Shown here one piece after another: positions 49,997 to 58,688 of a stretch of DNA of 64,000 nt. Numbering within the stretch: the first letter of the stretch is position 1; every line of letters starts with the position of its first letter. The notes under the pieces are model-generated. The model had not been told where the DNA came from and did no database searches. It saw only the letters and a program-made list of their open reading frames with translations. Origin of the DNA: Alphaproteobacteria bacterium (GTDB lineage Bacteria; Pseudomonadota; Alphaproteobacteria; MPNO01; UBA830). The stretch is from positions 192,001 through 256,000 of the forward strand of contig OZ251539.1 of NCBI GenBank assembly GCA_965243135.1, written 5' to 3'. Made by a program: the position numbers and the translations under genes.

Positions 49997-50335
49997 ACGC
50001 CGCCCGCGGCAGCGGCAACGGCGAGTTCGACAGCGGGATCAGCTTCGCGATGCGCTTCTGAAACCCCGGCGGCGGGCCGGCAACGAACGCCGGCCCGCCG
50101 CCTTCCCCGGACGGACGACCCGCCGCCGGCCCCAGCGAAAGGCGCGGCTCCGCGACGGAACGGGAACCTTCGGCGCCGTGGTTCCGTCCGTCTCGAAAGC
50201 TTCACGAGCCTCCGGCAGCGGAAACCGGTGCGACGGCGCTGCGACACGCTGCCAGGCGCCGGACGGCATCGCGAAACTCCCGGTCGGCGGAGCCGACGAT
50301 TTCAAGCTCCCTGTCGAGATCCGCTTCGCGCGGCG
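49997..50335 (+). pseudogene. Remnant autotransporter C-terminus (AARGSGNGEFDSGISFAMRF*) plus duplicated downstream flank
   Basis: Paralogous to 42571-42895; only the last ~20 codons of the gene remain. Confidence 0.8.
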
Positions 50336-51226
50336 CGATCGTTCCAGGCTGCGCGAGTCCGCCGTCTGGCGCGCGCAGGCAGTCCCTCATACCGGTGCCT
50401 GAGGCGGCGGCGAAGAAACCGCTGCCGCGCCCGAGCTTCTCAGCCGGTTTCCGCCTTCAAGCGCCGTTTCGCCTGCGCCGACGCGCGCCGCGATTTCAAG
50501 AAGGTGGGAAGCGGTCACGACGATTCGTTCGGCGCCCCGCGGCGCTAAGGACCCCGGCTCGCAGACCGCCGTTTGCGACGCGGCGACCGTCACTCGTTTT
50601 CGGCCTTCGGCCCGCCACTCTTCCGCCGTGCGTTGCGCGCGACCGACGGACGAGGGGCTTTGCCGCCGGCAACGGCCCGGCGGGACGAGGCGCGCCAGGA
50701 AGCGGAAACGTCGCGCGGAGGCGGGCCGGCAGGCGACGTTCCGGAGAACGCAGCGCGCGCGCCGAGGCGGCGCGCAACGAGCCGCCTGAAGTCGGCTTCT
50801 TCGGCGAACGAGCGGGCCGCCCGCGGCGAAGCCGGGGAAGCGACTCGACGAACGCGGCAACGCCCGCGGCGCGCAAGCTTGACAAGTTCGAGAGCGAGCG
50901 CGCCCAAGACGCGCAGGAGAGCGGCGCGGAACGAGAAGCCCGGCGGGGGGCGACAGCCCGGGTCGCCGTCGCGCGGACGCGTGCCGCGCTTGCCGGGTTT
51001 CCGTCCGCCGTCCGCGGCAAGCCTTGCGCGAGAAACGGAGAACGAGAAACGGAGAAAAGGTCGCTCGTCGAGTTTCGCGCCGCGGCGTTGTCGCCGGCCC
51101 CCGTTCGACGCCGAAGCGGGAGGCGCGCCGGTGCCGCGGTCGGTCGCGAACGACGTCGCCGGTACTTGCGCCCCGCGCGACCGCGACAGTCGCTCGACTT
51201 CGAGGTTTCGCCGGCGGGGAAGGCCG

Positions 51227-51790
51227 TCAGGCGCCCTTCGTTCCCGCCCCGTCGTCCGTCGGCGTCGTTCGTTCGGCGACGGTTTCCGGCGCGGCGGTCT
51301 GGCGGCCGGTTATCAGCGCCTTGAGCGCCGTCATGCTCTCCTCGTGGCGGCGCTCTTCGGCTTCGCGCTGCTGCTGCATGGCTTGCAGCATGGCCTCGTG
51401 GCGGCGCTCTTCGGCTTCGCGCTGCTGCTGCATGGCTGCGCTCTGCTGCTGCATGGCCGCGCTCTGCTGCTGCATGGCCGCGCGCTGCTGTTCCATCGCT
51501 TCCTCGTGGCGGCGCTCTTCGGCTTCGCGCTGCTGCTGCATGGCTGCGCTCTGCTGCTGCATGGCCGCGCGCTGCTGTTCCATCGCTTCCTCGTGGCGGC
51601 GCTCTTCGGCTTCGCGCTGCTGCTGCATGGCTGCGCTCTGCTGCTGCGTAGCCGCGCGCTGCTGTTGCCCGCGTTCGTCGCTGGCGCGGACCATCGCGCG
51701 GATGCCATACCAGATGCCGACGGCCGCGATGGCGGCCGCAAGCGCGTTGACGGAAGCGACGGCGAGATTGGCGATCGCGACGGCACTCAT
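51227..51790 (-). CDS. Small membrane-anchored coiled-coil repeat protein (cassette passenger, copy 1)
   Basis: RBS ggaaagga before ATG 51790; hydrophobic N-terminus ending GIWYGIRAM; repeated [16 protein letters not shown] units; paralogue at 56164-56721. Confidence 0.8.
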
Positions 51791-51821
51791 GAGCGTCCTT
51801 TCCGGAGACGGTTCCGGAGAC

Positions 51822-51850
51822 AGTATCCGCGGCGCCGATGCGATCGTCAA
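51822..51850 (-). promoter_or_regulatory. Cassette-borne sigma70 promoter (copy 1)
   Basis: TTGACG-17 nt-GATACT on the minus strand, identical in both copies. Confidence 0.65.
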
Positions 51851-52244
51851 GAGAGACGAGGGAGAGACGTTTGCGCCAGGGCGGGAACGGGGCGGCGGCG
51901 TTCATTGCCCGTCCTCGGAGCGGCAGCAGGGGCGGCGCGCAGGACGACCCGCAAGCGGCGAAACGCCTGAACTCCAGGTTGCGGTTCCGTCGAACGGGAG
52001 CGTCGTCCGGTCGAGCGAGGCGGACCCGTCGAACCTCCAGGGTTCGGCCATGGGCGGAAAGCCCGAGGAAACATGCAACCAGCGTGGGCCCGCCTGGAGG
52101 CGGAACGGGCAGGTCGCCCCGCGACCGAACGCTTACGTTCTGAACGTCGGATCCGTCCTCTGCGAACCCGACGCCGGCGCGCGTCGAGAACGTTTCGACC
52201 TGACCGGAAATTTCGCGCGCCGGCGGCGCGGCGTCCTGAGGCGG

Positions 52245-52272
52245 TTGACAGCCCGGAGAGCGCCCCTATATT
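52245..52272 (+). promoter_or_regulatory. Putative rpsD promoter
   Basis: TTGACA (52245-52250), 16-nt spacer, TATATT (52267-52272); RBS GAGGAG before ATG 52326. Confidence 0.7.
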
Positions 52273-52325
52273 GCGGCGCTTGCCGGTCGAGCGTCGCCGG
52301 CGGAAAATGGCGAGGAGACCGGCGC

Positions 52326-52943
52326 ATGTCGAAGCGCGTCCGCTCGAAATACAAGATCAATCGGCGTCTCGGATGCAATCTGTGGGGACGCCCGAAGAGT
52401 CCGTGGAACCTCCGCGAGTACGGCCCGGGCCAGCACGGCCAGCGCCGCCGCAGCAAGTTGTCGGACTACGGCCAGCAACTTCAGGCCAAGCAGAAGCTGA
52501 AGGGATACTACGGAAACATCACGGAAAAGCAGTTCCGGCGGACCTACGAGAGAGCGGTCAGGCGGCGGGGCGATACCGTCGAGCTTCTCATCGGACTGCT
52601 GGAACAGCGGCTGGACACCGTCGTCTATCGCCTCAAGTTCGTGCCCACGGTATTTGCGGCGCGCCAGTTCATCAACCATGGCCACATCAGGGTCAACGGC
52701 AAGCGGGTCAACATACCGTCCAGTCTGGTCGGTCCGGACGACGTGGTCGAGGTCCGGGAAAAATCCCGCGAACTGCCGTTGGTGTTGGAGGCCGCGGGCC
52801 TGCCGGAGCGCGACGTGCCGGACTACCTGGAGGTCGACCACAACAAGATGCAGGGCAGGCTCGTCCGCATTCCCCAGTTCGCTGAAGTCCCCTACCCGGT
52901 GCAGATGGAGCCGAATCTGGTCATCGAATACTATTCGCGGTGA
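52326..52943 (+). CDS. rpsD: 30S ribosomal protein S4
   Basis: [26 protein letters not shown]...[28 protein letters not shown]...[13 protein letters not shown]...IEYYSR; alphaproteobacterial type. Confidence 0.98.
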
Positions 52944-53122
52944 CCCTCCCCTGCGCGGGGAAGGCGGCCGGGGGAGCCGGACGGGCCGCTCGGGGCTCCC
53001 CGCTGGCGCGGCGCGGCGGCGCAAGGTAGATTCCGGTTCGGTCGAACGGGATTGTCCCGTCCGCGACGTCAATGGCCGGCTCCCGTCGCCCGGGTGCCGC
53101 GCCGGGCAAAGGGAGAAGTGGA

Positions 53123-54154
53123 ATGAGAATATCGAGCGCTACGCGCGGGTTCGCCTGCGCCGCCGGCATGGCCGCGGTCCTTGCCGCGTCGTCCGCCGCC
53201 CGCGCCGACACCGACGTCAGGCTGACGCTCGACTGGGTGCCCCAGTCGACTCACGGCCCGTCGTTCATCGCGCAGTACGAGGGCTACTACAAGGCGGAGG
53301 GCCTGTCGGTGAAAATCGACCCGGGCAAGGGCTCCGCCGATGCGGTCCGCAAGCTGGTCGCGGGCACCCACGACCTCGGCTGGGCCGACATCAACGCCAT
53401 CATCCAGTACAACGCGGAGAATCCGGAAAAGGCGATCAAGACGGTCATGATGCTCTACGAGCAGCCGCCTTTTTCCATCTGCGTCCTTGCGAAGTCTCCG
53501 ATCGCGGATCCGAAGCAACTGGTCGGCAAGACCCTCGGCGCTCCCGTGTTCGACGCAAGCTTCAAGCTGTTTCCGGCCTTCGCCAAGGCGATCGGCATCG
53601 ACGCGGGCGCGGTCGAGAAGAAGAACATGGATCCGCGCCTCCGCGAGCCGATGCTTCTGCGCGGCGAAGTCGACGCGGTTTCCGGGCACATCTTCTCGAC
53701 GGTGCTCGCCGTTATGGCGGCTGGCTACAAGGAATCGGATCTGAGGTGCTTCCTCTACGGCGACTACGGGATGGAATCCTACGCGAACGGGATCGCCGTT
53801 TCGCCGAAGTTCCTCGAGAAGAACCCGGACGCCGTCCGCGGCTTCATCAGGGCGACCTACAAGGCCGCGCGCGATACGGTTCTCAAGCCCGAAATGGCGA
53901 TCGCCGCGGCCAAGAAGTTCGAGCCTCTGGTCGACGAGGCCGTCGAAGCGGATCGTTTGCGGCTCGGCGTGTCGTGCTGCATCCTGACGCCCAACGTGAA
54001 GAAGGACGGTTACGGGGACGTCGATATGGCGCGGCTCCAGCGGTCGATCGAACAGGCGGCCCTGGCGTACGGACTCAAGAACCCGCCGAAGGCGGAGGAC
54101 ATGTTCGACCGGTCCTATCTGCCGCCGAAGTCCGAGCGGTTCATCGACAAATAG
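53123..54154 (+). CDS. ABC transporter substrate-binding protein (NMT1/THI5, NitT/TauT family)
   Basis: Signal peptide; LTLDW...HGP..IA...GYYKAEGL.V.I.PGKGS motif. Confidence 0.9.
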   Translation: MRISSATRGFACAAGMAAVLAASSAARADTDVRLTLDWVPQSTHGPSFIAQYEGYYKAEGLSVKIDPGKGSADAVRKLVAGTHDLGWADINAIIQYNAENPEKAIKTVMMLYEQPPFSICVLAKSPIADPKQLVGKTLGAPVFDASFKLFPAFAKAIGIDAGAVEKKNMDPRLREPMLLRGEVDAVSGHIFSTVLAVMAAGYKESDLRCFLYGDYGMESYANGIAVSPKFLEKNPDAVRGFIRATYKAARDTVLKPEMAIAAAKKFEPLVDEAVEADRLRLGVSCCILTPNVKKDGYGDVDMARLQRSIEQAALAYGLKNPPKAEDMFDRSYLPPKSERFIDK

Positions 54155-54162
54155 ACCGCGCT

Positions 54163-54194
54163 CCGCCGCGCCGTCCGTCGGGACGGCGCGGCGG
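54163..54194 (+). other. Intercistronic 14-bp perfect stem-loop
   Basis: ccgccgcgccgtcc-gtcg-ggacggcgcggcgg between the binding-protein and ATPase genes; resembles mRNA-stabilising hairpins. Confidence 0.7.
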
Positions 54195-54212
54195 CTTCGC
54201 GTCTATGCGGCC

Positions 54213-55019
54213 ATGAATTTCATCGACATCGACGGCGTCGACCTCGTCTATCGCAACGCCGCTGGCGAGGAGGCGGGGGAGGGAACGCTCGCGCTGTCCG
54301 GGGCTTCGCTGCGGATGGACAAGGGCGCGTTCGTTGCGCTCGTGGGACCGAGCGGGTGCGGCAAGTCCACCCTGCTCAAGGTCGTGGCGGGCCTCGTCCG
54401 GGCGAACGAGGGCAAGGTCGTCGTCGCCGGCCAGGAGGTGACGCGGCCGCTCAAGATCGTCGGCATGGCGTTTCAGAACGCGACCCTGCTGCCTTGGCGC
54501 TCGACCCGCGAAAACGTGTTGCTGCCGCTCGAGATCGTCGAACCCCATCGGAAACGCTTCCGCGCGGAGAAGGCGGCCTACGAGGCGCTTGCGGACGAGC
54601 TTCTGGCGACGGTCGGCCTCGACGGGTTCGGAGACCGCGCGCCCTGGCAGCTGTCGGGAGGGATGCAGCAGCGCGCGCAGCTGTGCCGCGCTCTCGTGCA
54701 CGAACCCGACCTCCTGCTGCTCGACGAGCCGTTCGGCGCGCTCGACGCCTTCACGCGCGAAGAACTCTGGGACGTTCTGCAGACCCTGTACCTCAAACGG
54801 GCCTGCACGATCATCCTGGTGACGCACGACCTGCGCGAGGCGGTTTACCTTGCGGACACGGTGCACGTCATGAGCGCCCGCCCGGGGCGGATGATCCTCG
54901 AGCGCGCGATCGACCTGCCGCGGCCGCGCAAACTGGACGACCTGTACGGCAGGGAGGTGGTCGACCTGCTTCAGGACCTCCGGCATCACATCCACGTCGC
55001 GCGGGGAGAGCGGCAATGA
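54213..55019 (+). CDS. ABC transporter ATP-binding protein (NitT/TauT family)
   Basis: Walker A GPSGCGKST, signature LSGGMQQR, Walker B LLLDEPFGALD, H-loop VTHD. Confidence 0.96.
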   Translation: MNFIDIDGVDLVYRNAAGEEAGEGTLALSGASLRMDKGAFVALVGPSGCGKSTLLKVVAGLVRANEGKVVVAGQEVTRPLKIVGMAFQNATLLPWRSTRENVLLPLEIVEPHRKRFRAEKAAYEALADELLATVGLDGFGDRAPWQLSGGMQQRAQLCRALVHEPDLLLLDEPFGALDAFTREELWDVLQTLYLKRACTIILVTHDLREAVYLADTVHVMSARPGRMILERAIDLPRPRKLDDLYGREVVDLLQDLRHHIHVARGERQ

Positions 55020-55795
55020 AGAGCGTGACATTCGAACGGGCTTCTCCATGGCTCGTCACCGCGGTTCTGCTGATCCTGTGGGAGGCGGCGGTGCATGCCT
55101 TCAACGTGTCGCGGATCGAACTGCCGTCGGCGTCCGAATCCTTCTACGCCATTTGGGAATTTCGCGTGGCGCTATGGCAAAACGCGCTGACGACGCTGAT
55201 CGCGACGGTCATCGGCTTCGGGATCGCGGTCGTCTTCGGGGTCGCGATGGGGATCGCCATCGGCCTTTGGCGCCCCGTCTACGCGGCGCTCTATCCGCTG
55301 ATGGTGGCCTTCAACTCCATACCCAAGGTGGCGATCGTCCCGATCCTGATGCTGTGGTTCGGCATCGGCCTGGCCACCTCGACGCTCACGGCGTTCATCC
55401 TCTGTTTTTTCCCGATCGTCGTGAACATGGCGGTCGCTCTCGCGACGATCGAACCGGAGCTCAAGGACGTTCTGAGGGCGCTCGGCGCTCACGAGCGCGA
55501 TATCGTGATCAAGATCGGCATTCCGCGGTCGCTTCCCTATCTGTTCGCGGCGCTCAAGATCGCGATTACGCTGGCTTTCGTCGGAGCCGTCATCGCCGAG
55601 ACGGTGGCGGGAGGGAGCGGCATCGGGCATCTGATGCTGGTCGCGAGCTCCAACTTCAACACCCCGTTGATGTTCGCCGGCCTGATCGTCATCGCAGTGA
55701 TGGCGATCGGCATGTACGCGATTTTCGCGGTGATGGATTCGCGCTTCACCGGGTGGGCGACGCGCGACATGTCCTACGCGGCCGCAGGCGGATAG
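55016..55795 (+). CDS. ABC transporter permease (NitT/TauT family)
   Basis: ATGA overlap with the ATPase stop; multiple TM segments; PKVAIVP..LWFG.G and GAVIAE...G.GIG motifs. Confidence 0.94.
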   Translation: MKSVTFERASPWLVTAVLLILWEAAVHAFNVSRIELPSASESFYAIWEFRVALWQNALTTLIATVIGFGIAVVFGVAMGIAIGLWRPVYAALYPLMVAFNSIPKVAIVPILMLWFGIGLATSTLTAFILCFFPIVVNMAVALATIEPELKDVLRALGAHERDIVIKIGIPRSLPYLFAALKIAITLAFVGAVIAETVAGGSGIGHLMLVASSNFNTPLMFAGLIVIAVMAIGMYAIFAVMDSRFTGWATRDMSYAAAGG

Positions 55796-56097
55796 ACCGA
55801 AGGTAAGCGTTCGGTCGCGGGGTGACACCTGCCCGTTCCGTCTCCAGTCCCGGTGCAGGGCAGGCCCACGCTGGTTGCATGTTTCCTCGGGCTTTCCGCC
55901 CATGGCCGAACCCTGGAGGTTCGACTGCGGAAGTCCGCCTCGCTCGACCGGACGACGCTCCCGTTCGACGGAACCGCAGTCTGGAGTTCAGGCGTTTCGC
56001 CGCTTGCGGCGCATGCGCGCTCCGCCGCCGCCTCGAGGACAGAGCCCGGCAATGAACGCCACCGCCCCGTTCTCGCCTTGGCGCATGCGTCTTTCTC

Positions 56098-56126
56098 TTG
56101 ACGATCGCATCGGCGCCGCGGATACT
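56098..56126 (+). promoter_or_regulatory. Cassette-borne sigma70 promoter (copy 2)
   Basis: TTGACG (56098-56103), 17-nt spacer, GATACT (56121-56126). Confidence 0.65.
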
Positions 56127-56163
56127 GTCTCCGGAATGGATACTGTCTCTGGAAAGGATACTT

Positions 56164-56721
56164 ATGATCGCTTTAGAGATCGCCAGACTCGCCGTCACTT
56201 TCGCCAACGCGGTCGCAGCCGTCGTCGCGGCCGTCGGCATCTGGTACGGCATCCGCGCGATGGTCCGCGCCAACGACGAACGCGGGCAGCAACAGCGCGC
56301 GGCCACGCAGCAGCAGAGCGCAGCCATGCTGCAGCAGAGCGAAGCCATGCTGCAACAGCGCGAAGCCGAAGAACGCCGCCACAAAGCCATGCTGCAGACC
56401 ATGCAGGATCAGCGCGAAGCGGAAGAACGCCGCCACGAGGAAGCGATGGAACAGCGGCGCGCGGCTACGCAGGAGCAGCGCGAAGCGGAAGAACGCCGCC
56501 ACGAGGAAGCGATGGAACAGCAGCGCGCGGCTATGCAGCAGCAACGCGAAGCCGAAGAACGCCGCCACAAAGCCGACGAACGCCGCCACAAAGCTGACGA
56601 ACGCCGCCACGAGGAGAGCATGACGGCGCTCAAGGCGCTGATCCGCCAGACCGCCGCGCCGGAAACCGTCGCCGAACGAACGACGCCGACGGACGACGGG
56701 GCGGGAACGAAGGGCGCCTGA
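56164..56721 (+). CDS. Small membrane-anchored coiled-coil repeat protein (cassette passenger, copy 2)
   Basis: RBS ggaaagga; [33 protein letters not shown], then QREAEERRH and KADERRH repeats; C-terminus shared with copy 1. Confidence 0.8.
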   Translation: MIALEIARLAVTFANAVAAVVAAVGIWYGIRAMVRANDERGQQQRAATQQQSAAMLQQSEAMLQQREAEERRHKAMLQTMQDQREAEERRHEEAMEQRRAATQEQREAEERRHEEAMEQQRAAMQQQREAEERRHKADERRHKADERRHEESMTALKALIRQTAAPETVAERTTPTDDGAGTKGA

Positions 56722-57482
56722 CGCCCTTCCCCGCCGGCGAGACCTCGAAGTCGAGCGACTGTCGCGGTCGCGCGGGGCGCACCTCCCGCTTCGGCGCGAG
56801 GGGCCGACGACAACGCCGCTTGCAGGCGCGAAACTCGACCTGCCCGGTGATCTTTTCTCCGTTTTTCGCGCAAGGCTTGCCGCGGACGGCGGCCAAAAAC
56901 CCGGCAAGCGCGGCGCGCGTCCGCGCGACGGCGACCCGGGCCGTCGTCCCCCGCCGGGCCTCTCGTCGCTCTTCCGCACGGTGCGCTCGCGCTCGAACTT
57001 GTAAAGCTTGCGCGCCGCGGGCGTCGCTCGTCGAGTCGCTTCCTCGGCTTCGCCGTGGCGGCCCGCTTCCCGCTCAAGTTCGTTCGCCGAAGAGGCCGAC
57101 TTCAGGCGGCTCGTTGCGCGCCGCCGCGCTGCGTTAACGCCGCCCTTGCCTCCGCGCGACGCGCGCGCCCCGTCCCGCCGGGGCGGTGCGACAGCAAAGC
57201 CCCCGTCCGTCGGTCGCAGTGCGCACCCGCGTCCGGTCCCCGGACGAAATTTTCCTCGTCCCCCGGGTAGCGAACGCTTACGACCGAAGGAACCGGTCCC
57301 CGCGGAAGCGCGTCCGACGCGAGCGGAGGCCGAGGAGTTTCCGCGCCCGGCGTTGCGTCGCCGATTCTCCGTTCGCCAGGGAGCGGCGATCGCGACGCGG
57401 GCTTCTTGCGGCCTCGGCGGTTGCCCGGCTCTGGAACGTCCCTTGCCTTTGCCGTCGGTGCGATGGCAGTCTGGAAGACGCC

Positions 57483-58688
57483 ATGAAGCTCGATATCGAT
57501 CCCGACCGCCTTCTCGGCGATCTCCGGTCGCTCCGGGAATTCGGCCGCCTGACCGCGGGCGTCAGCCGGGTTTCCTATTCGGAGGCCGACGCTGCGTCGC
57601 GGGCCTGGCTGCGGGAGCGCATGATCGAAGCCGGGCTGGAGACCGCGGTCGACGACGTCGGCAACGTGTTCGGGCGCGCGCCGGGAAGCGGCCCCGCGGT
57701 CGTCATCGGCTCGCATACGGATTCGGTGCCGGTCGGCGGTTGGCTCGACGGATCCTTCGGAGTGATCTGCGGACTGGAGATCGCCCGCAGCGCGGCGGCG
57801 GCCGGCCTTGCGGTCGAGGTCGTCTCGTTCATGGACGAGGAGGGAACCTATCTCGCCTGCCTGGGCAGCCGCGCCTTCTGCGGAGATCTCGGCGCCGACG
57901 AACTCGAGGCGGCGCGCGGTCCCGCGGGCGAGAGCGCGCGCGCCGCGATCGAGCGCTGCGGCTACGCCGGCAATGCGCCGGTTCGCTGCGATCCGGACCG
58001 TCACCTCGCGTATCTGGAGGCGCATATCGAACAGGGGCCGAGGCTGGAGGCCGCGGGGAAGCCGATCGGCGTGGTCACGGGAATCGTCGGCATGCGCCGC
58101 TATCGCGTCGCGATCGCCGGCGAGGCGGACCATGCGGGAACGGTGCCGATGGCCATGCGCAGGGATGCCGGCCGCGCCGCGATATCCTGCGCCGCGGGCA
58201 TCCTCGAGGACCTGCCCCGCGCCGGCGGCCCGGATTCCGTGTGGAACATAGGCGCGATCGACTTCCGGCCCGGCGCCGACAACGTGGTGCCGGCTTCGGC
58301 GACCGTCTCCGTCGAGATCCGCGACTTGTCGGCCGAGGTCGTCGCCGCGATGGAACGCGCGGTGACCGAACGGGTGGCGGCGGTGGAGCGCGAAACCGGA
58401 CTTCCCTGTTCCGTCGCGACGACTCTCGAAGTCGAGCCGGCGGCGATGGACGAGGGCTTGATGGGCAAGCTCCGGGACGCGGCCGCGGCGTGCGGCGCGG
58501 GTTGCATGGACATGCCCAGCGGCGCCGGCCACGACGCGATGGTGACGGCCCGCCGTTTGCCTTCGGCCATGCTGTTCGTTCCCAGCATACGCGGCAAGAG
58601 CCACAGCGAGGCGGAAGACACGCATCCGGACGACCTCGCGCTCGGTTGCCGCGTGCTTGCCGCGGCAGTGGAGCGGATCGCCGGATAG
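57483..58688 (+). CDS. M20-family Zn amidohydrolase (allantoate amidohydrolase / N-carbamoyl-amino-acid hydrolase-like)
   Basis: GSHTDSVP.GG.LDG, DEEG, EAHIEQGP, GEADHAGT.PM and SGAGHDA motifs. Confidence 0.92.
   Translation: MKLDIDPDRLLGDLRSLREFGRLTAGVSRVSYSEADAASRAWLRERMIEAGLETAVDDVGNVFGRAPGSGPAVVIGSHTDSVPVGGWLDGSFGVICGLEIARSAAAAGLAVEVVSFMDEEGTYLACLGSRAFCGDLGADELEAARGPAGESARAAIERCGYAGNAPVRCDPDRHLAYLEAHIEQGPRLEAAGKPIGVVTGIVGMRRYRVAIAGEADHAGTVPMAMRRDAGRAAISCAAGILEDLPRAGGPDSVWNIGAIDFRPGADNVVPASATVSVEIRDLSAEVVAAMERAVTERVAAVERETGLPCSVATTLEVEPAAMDEGLMGKLRDAAAACGAGCMDMPSGAGHDAMVTARRLPSAMLFVPSIRGKSHSEAEDTHPDDLALGCRVLAAAVERIAG

Follow-up and report, generated by a model that had tools for sequence, protein, structure and literature searches.

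A probable IS66-derived mobile insertion cassette carrying an unnamed small membrane-helix gene in an alphaproteobacterial genome

Insertion sequences (ISs) of the IS66 family carry terminal repeats of 20-30 bp that begin with GTAAGCG, together with 8-bp direct repeats (PMC11946415), and two Paracoccus members of 2.7-2.8 kb are tabulated with a direct repeat (DR) of 8 (PMC3281130). Mobile insertion cassettes (MICs), that is, IS-derived passenger cassettes devoid of a transposase, form a described class, exemplified by MIC231 of Bacillus cereus, which comes from IS231 (PMC3281130). IS66 members with passenger genes, termed tIS66, include ISPa75, which carries fosZ (PMC12888890), and bacterial MITEs (transposable elements of miniature size with inverted repeats) that are moved in trans are documented, for example MITEPsy1 (PMC3189936). 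Against this background we describe a 1479-bp unit from an alphaproteobacterium, found in a window of 64,000 nucleotides (the whole stretch of DNA that was analyzed; assembly GCA_965243135.1, contig OZ251539.1, positions 192,001 to 256,000). Coordinates are those of the window unless prefixed with C1, the single contig of 6.10 Mb that makes up the genome.

We consider the unit, with a probability of roughly 0.85, to be a non-autonomous derivative of the IS66 family, i.e., a MIC that carries a captured gene and has been spread around the genome. An earlier, sequence-only reading of the same DNA had put the unit forward as an undescribed system, a claim that finds no support once the IS66 signature, the MICs and the tIS66 elements cited above are set beside it. 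If our explanation is correct, the unit is a clear-cut case from nature in which a deletion derivative of IS66 took up a gene and was propagated.

Boundaries of the unit and origin of its ends

The unit occupies positions 55803-57281, measures 1479 bp between its duplications and terminates in perfect 11-bp inverted repeats, which are GTAAGCGTTCG on the left (55803-55813) and the reverse complement of this sequence on the right (57271-57281; Table 1). The junctions read ...GGATAG ACCGAAG, then GTAAGCGTTCG ... CGAACGCTTAC, then GACCGAAG, and the left duplication begins on the final base of the TAG codon that ends the preceding ABC permease gene. Both the GTAAGCG start of the inverted repeats and the 8-bp duplication agree with the IS66 family. 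A DDE transposase (PF03050/NF033517) is not encoded in the unit, which retains only a remnant of about 326 bp of its N-terminal coding part, and none of the 34 matches of the IS66 transposase domain PF03050 in the genome falls inside it. Since the transposase is reduced to a remnant, the unit is an IS66 derivative and not an autonomous member of the family. The 11-bp terminal inverted repeats, the 8-bp target-site duplication, the 1479-bp length, the absence of a transposase, the sigma-70-like promoter match and the single open reading frame (ORF) of 185 aa had all been described in the sequence-only reading, and all were borne out.

Table 1. Features of the cassette locus and of duplication-flanked elements elsewhere in the genome
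Feature	Position	Strand	Length	Duplication	Remark
Left target-site duplication copy	55795-55802		8 bp	GACCGAAG	
Left terminal inverted repeat (L end), GTAAGCGTTCGGTCGCGGGGTGAC	55803-55826	+			
Left-arm module of about 100 bp (mosaic piece)	55920-56032				unit positions 126-238
Sigma-70-like promoter match, TTGACG-17-GATACT	56098-56126	+			1 found vs 0.1 expected from shuffles
Shine-Dalgarno-like GGAAAGGA	56151-56158	+			5 nt ahead of ATG; kept in aligned copies
Passenger gene	56164-56721	+	185 aa		ATG at 56164, stop at 56721
Remnant of 5' (N-terminal) part of IS66 transposase gene	56800-57125	-			unit positions 1006-1331
Terminator-like hairpin followed by T-rich run	57230-57246	+			just inside right end; 1 found vs 1.5 expected, not above chance
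Right terminal inverted repeat (R end), GTAAGCGTTCGCTACCCGGGGGAC reading inward	57258-57281	-			
Right target-site duplication copy	57282-57289		8 bp	GACCGAAG	
Second, diverged cassette copy	50639-52140	-			77% identity over 1576 alignment columns
This unit	55803-57281		1479 bp	GACCGAAG	
Element with L and R ends	C1:4556273-4557015		743 bp	CCCGGCCG	
Element with L and R ends	C1:5726443-5727890		1448 bp	AGTCAAGG	right tip mutated
Mini element with L and R ends	C1:2294699-2294757		59 bp	GGATGCTC	locus L069, 300-358
Element with two L-type ends	C1:956485-959057			AGTCGATC	locus L067

Within the window the 11-mer occurs four times with at most one mismatch (1.46 expected; 3 of 100 shuffles reach four), a count only weakly above chance; the whole-genome counts settle the question. 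Genome-wide there are 122 exact copies of GTAAGCGTTCG, whereas a random 11-mer should turn up about three times in 2 x 6.1 Mb. Facing pairs of these ends are flanked by perfect 8-bp repeats in 23 cases, with one more pair besides. Autonomous IS66 copies in the genome measure 2.6-2.9 kb. Eight of them, at C1:57673-60466 and at seven other places outside the window, are 2794 bp long, mutually 100% identical and each flanked by a perfect 8-bp duplication of its own. They contain one transposase ORF of 609 aa, which scores 172 bits with PF03050 (cut-off 23.1) and 265.5 with NF033517, the NCBIfam IS66 transposase (cut-off 180), followed by a second, DruA/DUF4338-like ORF. The identity of their sequences points to a recent burst of activity. 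The sequence-only reading had proposed a search for an autonomous IS with matching ends, and these GTAAGCGTTCG-ended copies are what the search returned.

The two ends of the unit are perfect inverted repeats over their first 11 bases and have 19 of the first 24 in common, and each matches a different IS66 subtype much better. Of the first 23 bases of the L end, 22 agree with the termini of the eight identical copies, and about 58 bp of the left end of the cassette resemble the other end of those copies with 75% identity. The R end matches one end of a subtype that we call type C at all 26 of its first 26 bases. Furthermore, unit positions 1006-1331 are 68-69% identical at the DNA level to type C positions 294-722, the coding start of the transposase, and this remnant points inward from the right end, on the strand opposite to the passenger gene. 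A right arm made up of an IS66 end and a 5' transposase remnant marks the unit as a deletion derivative that captured a gene.

The following course of events would account for this structure. An IS66 element would have lost most of its transposase gene together with the gene downstream of it, and about 900 bp of sequence of other origin, bringing a promoter-like site and one small gene, would have replaced the lost part. Because both IS66-type ends survived, the transposases of full-length IS66 copies could bind them and, acting in trans, would insert the cassette at new sites through the 8-bp staggered cut of the family. The present insertion would be one of these events, just past the stop codon of the ABC permease gene. 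That a transposase acts on the unit in trans had already been proposed in the sequence-only reading, and we judge the idea to be probably right, with the mobilization step inferred from sequence.

The left arm is itself a mosaic. Its module of about 100 bp is also found by itself at 22 further loci, where it lies upstream of AAA-ATPase_like/PDDEXK_9 genes that are present in multiple copies; at one of these loci (L065) it lies about 400 nt upstream of the AAA-ATPase_like gene. The module is well conserved, contains hairpin-prone stretches and has no match in an Rfam scan of positions 50000-58000, which at E <= 1 gave two chance-level matches, both outside the unit. A tRNA search of the window found none. 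Between the -10-like hexamer and the ribosome-binding site, an 18-bp stretch (GGATACTGTCTC.GGAA.) is tandemly duplicated at 56119-56163, a feature confined to the 55803-57281 unit among the 15 copies aligned.

Copies in the genome and competing explanations

A BLASTN search of the genome with the unit returned 171 matching segments in 67 loci, the unit included. We sorted the loci into 22 that hold the module only, four type C ISs, six lone right ends of about 50 bp, and 35 cassette copies or pieces, among which is the unit itself. Homology starts at unit position 9 or earlier in 16 other loci and ends at positions 1479-1494 in about 29, its edges recurring at positions 8/9 and 1487/1488; homology that stops so repeatedly at the termini indicates that these are real edges. 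Eight elements are complete from L to R, and four of them are flanked by perfect 8-bp duplications, each different from the others. The sequence-only reading had called for a count of copies with duplications of their own, and its expectation of further copies was confirmed in this way.

The genome presents a series that runs from full-length IS66 to cassettes of about 1.1-1.5 kb, to a 743-bp form and to a mini element of 59 bp. The last of these holds little beyond one L-type and one R-type IS66 end and, by its sequence, is a candidate minimal MITE. A further element, bounded by two L-type ends (C1:956485-959057), carries a broken copy of the passenger gene plus an AAA-ATPase_like/PDDEXK_9 gene and represents a second kind of IS66-bounded cargo. 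The cassette copies are 70-86% alike and most are decayed. Their best long matches reach 77-86% identity and give no sign of recent movement, unlike the eight identical autonomous ISs; judging from this divergence, the cassette family is old.

Several observations weigh against a cassette moved by IS66 transposases. Four of the eight complete elements have no duplication, and reciprocal flanks, a sign of recombination between copies, were sought among the complete elements and none was found. The BLASTN matches in the genome include no recent cassette copy. The L and R ends belong to different IS66 subtypes, and type C, the source of the R end, has broken transposase frames in all four of its copies. 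A search for the empty site with a 3.5-kb region in 30 relatives showed conservation of the left flank as far as the edge of the cassette, with the right flank at another place and the two never adjacent, and the contigs of four public runs contain, in the parts covered, no joint that skips the unit. An empty allele with a single copy of GACCGAAG, for which the sequence-only reading had suggested looking, was thus found neither in the relatives nor in the runs.

The relatives and the public runs differ in what they tell about the site. By DNA search the cassette is absent from the 30 relatives, except for 33-bp end matches in one. In four genomes of the same genus the alignment of the permease flank reaches the edge of the cassette, with the downstream gene located elsewhere, and in all nine relatives that were read the sequence downstream of the permease differs, which makes the relatives uninformative on the empty allele. 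Contigs of all four public runs, two of which are labelled 'sponge metagenome' or 'metagenome', run into the cassette on either side, with short ones breaking off within the repeat; one run shows 29 differences over 1367 bases of the right flank. With contigs entering from both sides and none skipping the unit, the site is occupied in every population seen.

The alternative that survives best was favored by the sequence-only reading, namely that selection on the passenger maintains the unit as a gene-delivery element, the copies being working genes placed around the genome. We regard this as doubtful. At least 60 nt of the ORF are present at 24 loci; the helix start, GIWYGIRAM and MTALKALI lie in one frame in six of these, and five are fully intact, the sixth having an altered tail. 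Selection would fit the five copies that are fully open with all conserved motifs, every one of which keeps the 17-nt promoter spacing, and it would fit the conservation of the family in other genomes. It would also fit the ratios of non-synonymous to synonymous substitution rates (dN/dS) for the first 52 codons: each of the 10 pairs among the five intact copies has a value below 1 (0.12-0.63). These values are weakly suggestive of some constraint and depend on only 2-13.5 non-synonymous differences per pair. For the last 36 codons, the rows of the copies at 5727544 and at 243790 (the second copy in the window) were misaligned by indels and were left unused.

The decay of the passenger speaks against selection more directly. 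Of the 24 loci with ORF sequence, 19 carry a degraded gene. Six of 15 aligned upstream regions retain the 17-nt spacing, and these six include all five intact genes and all three ORF-bearing elements with duplications. A 5-bp loss that shortens the spacer to 12 nt is shared by the other nine, and all nine have a broken ORF or one without the YGIRAM motif, yet they multiplied. Judged from these copies, the lineage with dead cargo has been no less successful in multiplying than the live one, which suggests that the spread is owed to the ends and not to the gene. The sequence-only reading had claimed that promoter and ribosome-binding site are conserved; the ribosome-binding site is indeed kept in the aligned copies, and the promoter spacing in only part of them. 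Its claim of selection on the passenger is not supported by five intact genes at 24 loci, and the ORFs elsewhere are mostly broken, the very outcome that it had named as speaking against it. Cassettes that keep multiplying after the death of their cargo warn against taking an open ORF in a repeat as a mark of selection.

Two further alternatives concern the way in which the copies arose. A full-length IS66 element might have inserted here and decayed in place, the cassette never having moved as a cassette. The transposase remnant in the right arm and the occupation of the site in all four runs would agree with this. It is nevertheless very improbable, given that the same architecture (L end, module, promoter, ORF, remnant and R end) recurs with different flanks at seven other complete or near-complete loci and in many fragments, and that three other L...R elements have duplications of their own. 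Least credible of all is a spread by recombination or segmental duplication with coincidental inverted ends and direct repeat, which could draw on the complete elements that have no duplication and on the many cassette copies in an IS-dense stretch at 2.75-2.89 Mb, but which is contradicted by homology that stops exactly at the termini on both sides and by four different perfect 8-bp matches, each with a chance of about 1.5e-5.

The passenger protein, its family and the second copy in the window

The sequence-only reading had described an N-terminal transmembrane (TM) helix and EERRH repeats in the passenger, and both are recognizable. A run of 22 uncharged residues (L9-I30) lies between R8 and R31, with the best 19-residue hydropathy window at 9-27 (score 2.06). 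It is followed by EAEERRH-type repeats of 7/22 residues, rich in Q, E, R, A, H and M, and by a conserved MTALKALI...ERTTP tail. The middle part consists of 21% E, 19% Q, 18% R and 16% A. An AlphaFold model built from 63 sequences predicts a continuous helix over residues 2-163, with a mean predicted local distance difference test (pLDDT) score of 90.4, and then a disordered tail. The composition would also fit a single stable helix instead of a coiled coil. A homodimer prediction, run without controls, scored 0.04 against a mark of 0.42, and the coiled coil named in the sequence-only reading stays putative. The charges that flank the hydrophobic helix are nearly balanced and favor neither membrane topology. 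The GC content of the ORF by codon position (0.77/0.46/0.78) is like that of the neighboring genes.

Database searches assigned no name to the protein. The best Pfam match (E 0.045) falls below the cut-offs, a profile search of the PDB gave no matches, the best score in the ESM Atlas (0.83) lies below the useful range, and a plasmid collection gave no match by protein or DNA. PADLOC matched none of the four proteins submitted. PHROGs returned nothing for the two proteins of the window, and two homologues matched PHROGs families of unknown function weakly (E 6e-5 and 9e-4). Membership in the TolA family (TIGR02794) was considered and rejected, since the score of 18.3 bits falls short of the cut-off (59.45).

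The cargo belongs to a real, unnamed family whose members are small bitopic membrane proteins, composed of a TM helix and a long helix of variable length. A profile search recovered 191 homologues at E <= 1e-5 among 8000 candidates scored, and among the matches listed (120 homologues) there is no Pfam domain and no name. The members that were read have in common a hydrophobic segment with AAVGIW[YH]GIRAMVRAN at its end, repeats of the QQREA[DE]ERRH.EAM type in a run that varies, and a conserved MTALKALI...ERTAPP end. The family is present in two of 78 species-representative genomes of the order. A pattern scan located 27 family loci in seven records of metagenome-assembled genomes (MAGs), labelled as six Alphaproteobacteria and one Gammaproteobacteria. 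A family of this size will meet annotators as repeated hypothetical genes.

The family is multiplied differently in the source genome and in the MAGs. In the source genome no match to the family falls outside a cassette locus. In other MAGs it occurs mostly in tandem arrays, with at least two copies at 11 of 20 loci examined and eight copies at one; at five loci (L050, L052, L048, L056 and L045) 4-8 genes follow one another head to tail with a period of about 400-650 bp, and the genes next to them, for housekeeping or surface proteins, are unrelated. Paired IS66 cores were found near none of the 27 MAG loci, four of which have a single chance 7-mer. Large flanking ORFs match Pfam in eight of 10 cases (LeuRS, LRR/fn3, autotransporter, amidohydrolase, MmeI, amidase, IS481 transposase and hydantoinase), and these matches are so unrelated that the family has no conserved context.

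DNA similarity between the cassette and the MAG loci is confined to unit positions 369-898, which means that it starts with the ATG and does not leave the ORF. Over the initial 121 nt of the gene (unit positions 370-490) the DNA is 76-82% identical to loci L047, L050, L060, L062 and L039, in MAGs that possibly belong to the same order or family. This identity is high for the distance and suggests, on the DNA alignments, strong constraint or transfer. The cargo family might be more than a chance passenger if it is amplified wherever it is found, with variation in copy number and length as the selected trait, for instance in a variable envelope or host-interaction protein of symbionts, and if the IS66 cassette is one of two routes of its multiplication. 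We hold this idea to be quite unlikely.

The second cassette copy in the window, which the sequence-only reading had reported as diverged, inverted and with an open ORF, was verified on all three counts. Its L end lies at 52126-52136, whereas the right terminus is missing and no duplication flanks the copy; the ORF of 187 aa (51227-51790) is open. The copy sits about 190 bp upstream of rpsD, and rpsD together with a three-gene ABC transporter (52137-55802) is bracketed by the two inverted cassettes. Recombination between them could invert the 52137-55802 block.

Comparison with described elements

The passenger protein resembles TolA in having one hydrophobic helix followed by a single long helix, and it gives a weak match to TIGR02794. 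It lacks the C-terminal domain of TolA, and the likeness is one of shape and composition only.

The element as a whole can be compared with four kinds of elements. With tIS66 it shares the GTAAGCG... ends and a captured passenger gene; however, tIS66 elements are autonomous and retain tnpA and tnpB along with the DDE transposase, whereas the unit has no transposase. It resembles MITEs in being non-autonomous and in its putative dependence on the transposase of a related IS. The difference lies in size and content, since MITEs are non-coding and measure tens to a few hundred bp and the unit has 1479 bp and an ORF; its 59-bp relative has the size of a MITE and fits that class. In relation to IS66 itself, the GTAAGCG termini, the 8-bp duplication, the left-end match to autonomous copies at 22 of 23 bases and the part of the transposase gene in the right arm are the same. 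The unit differs in having no transposase, in drawing its ends from two subtypes and in its length of 1479 bp instead of 2.6-2.9 kb.

The closest agreement is with the MICs, which likewise have IS-type inverted ends on both sides, a passenger gene, no transposase, and several copies with duplications of their own. The parent of MIC231 is IS4/IS231, whereas that of the unit is IS66, whose transposases would move it in trans. No description of an IS66 MIC was found in the literature searched, outside which lie ISfinder and the supplements of papers, and a prior cataloguing is possible. Overall, there is little out of the ordinary in the unit as an element: it descends from IS66, is decayed and non-autonomous, and carries an unnamed gene for a small membrane-helix protein.

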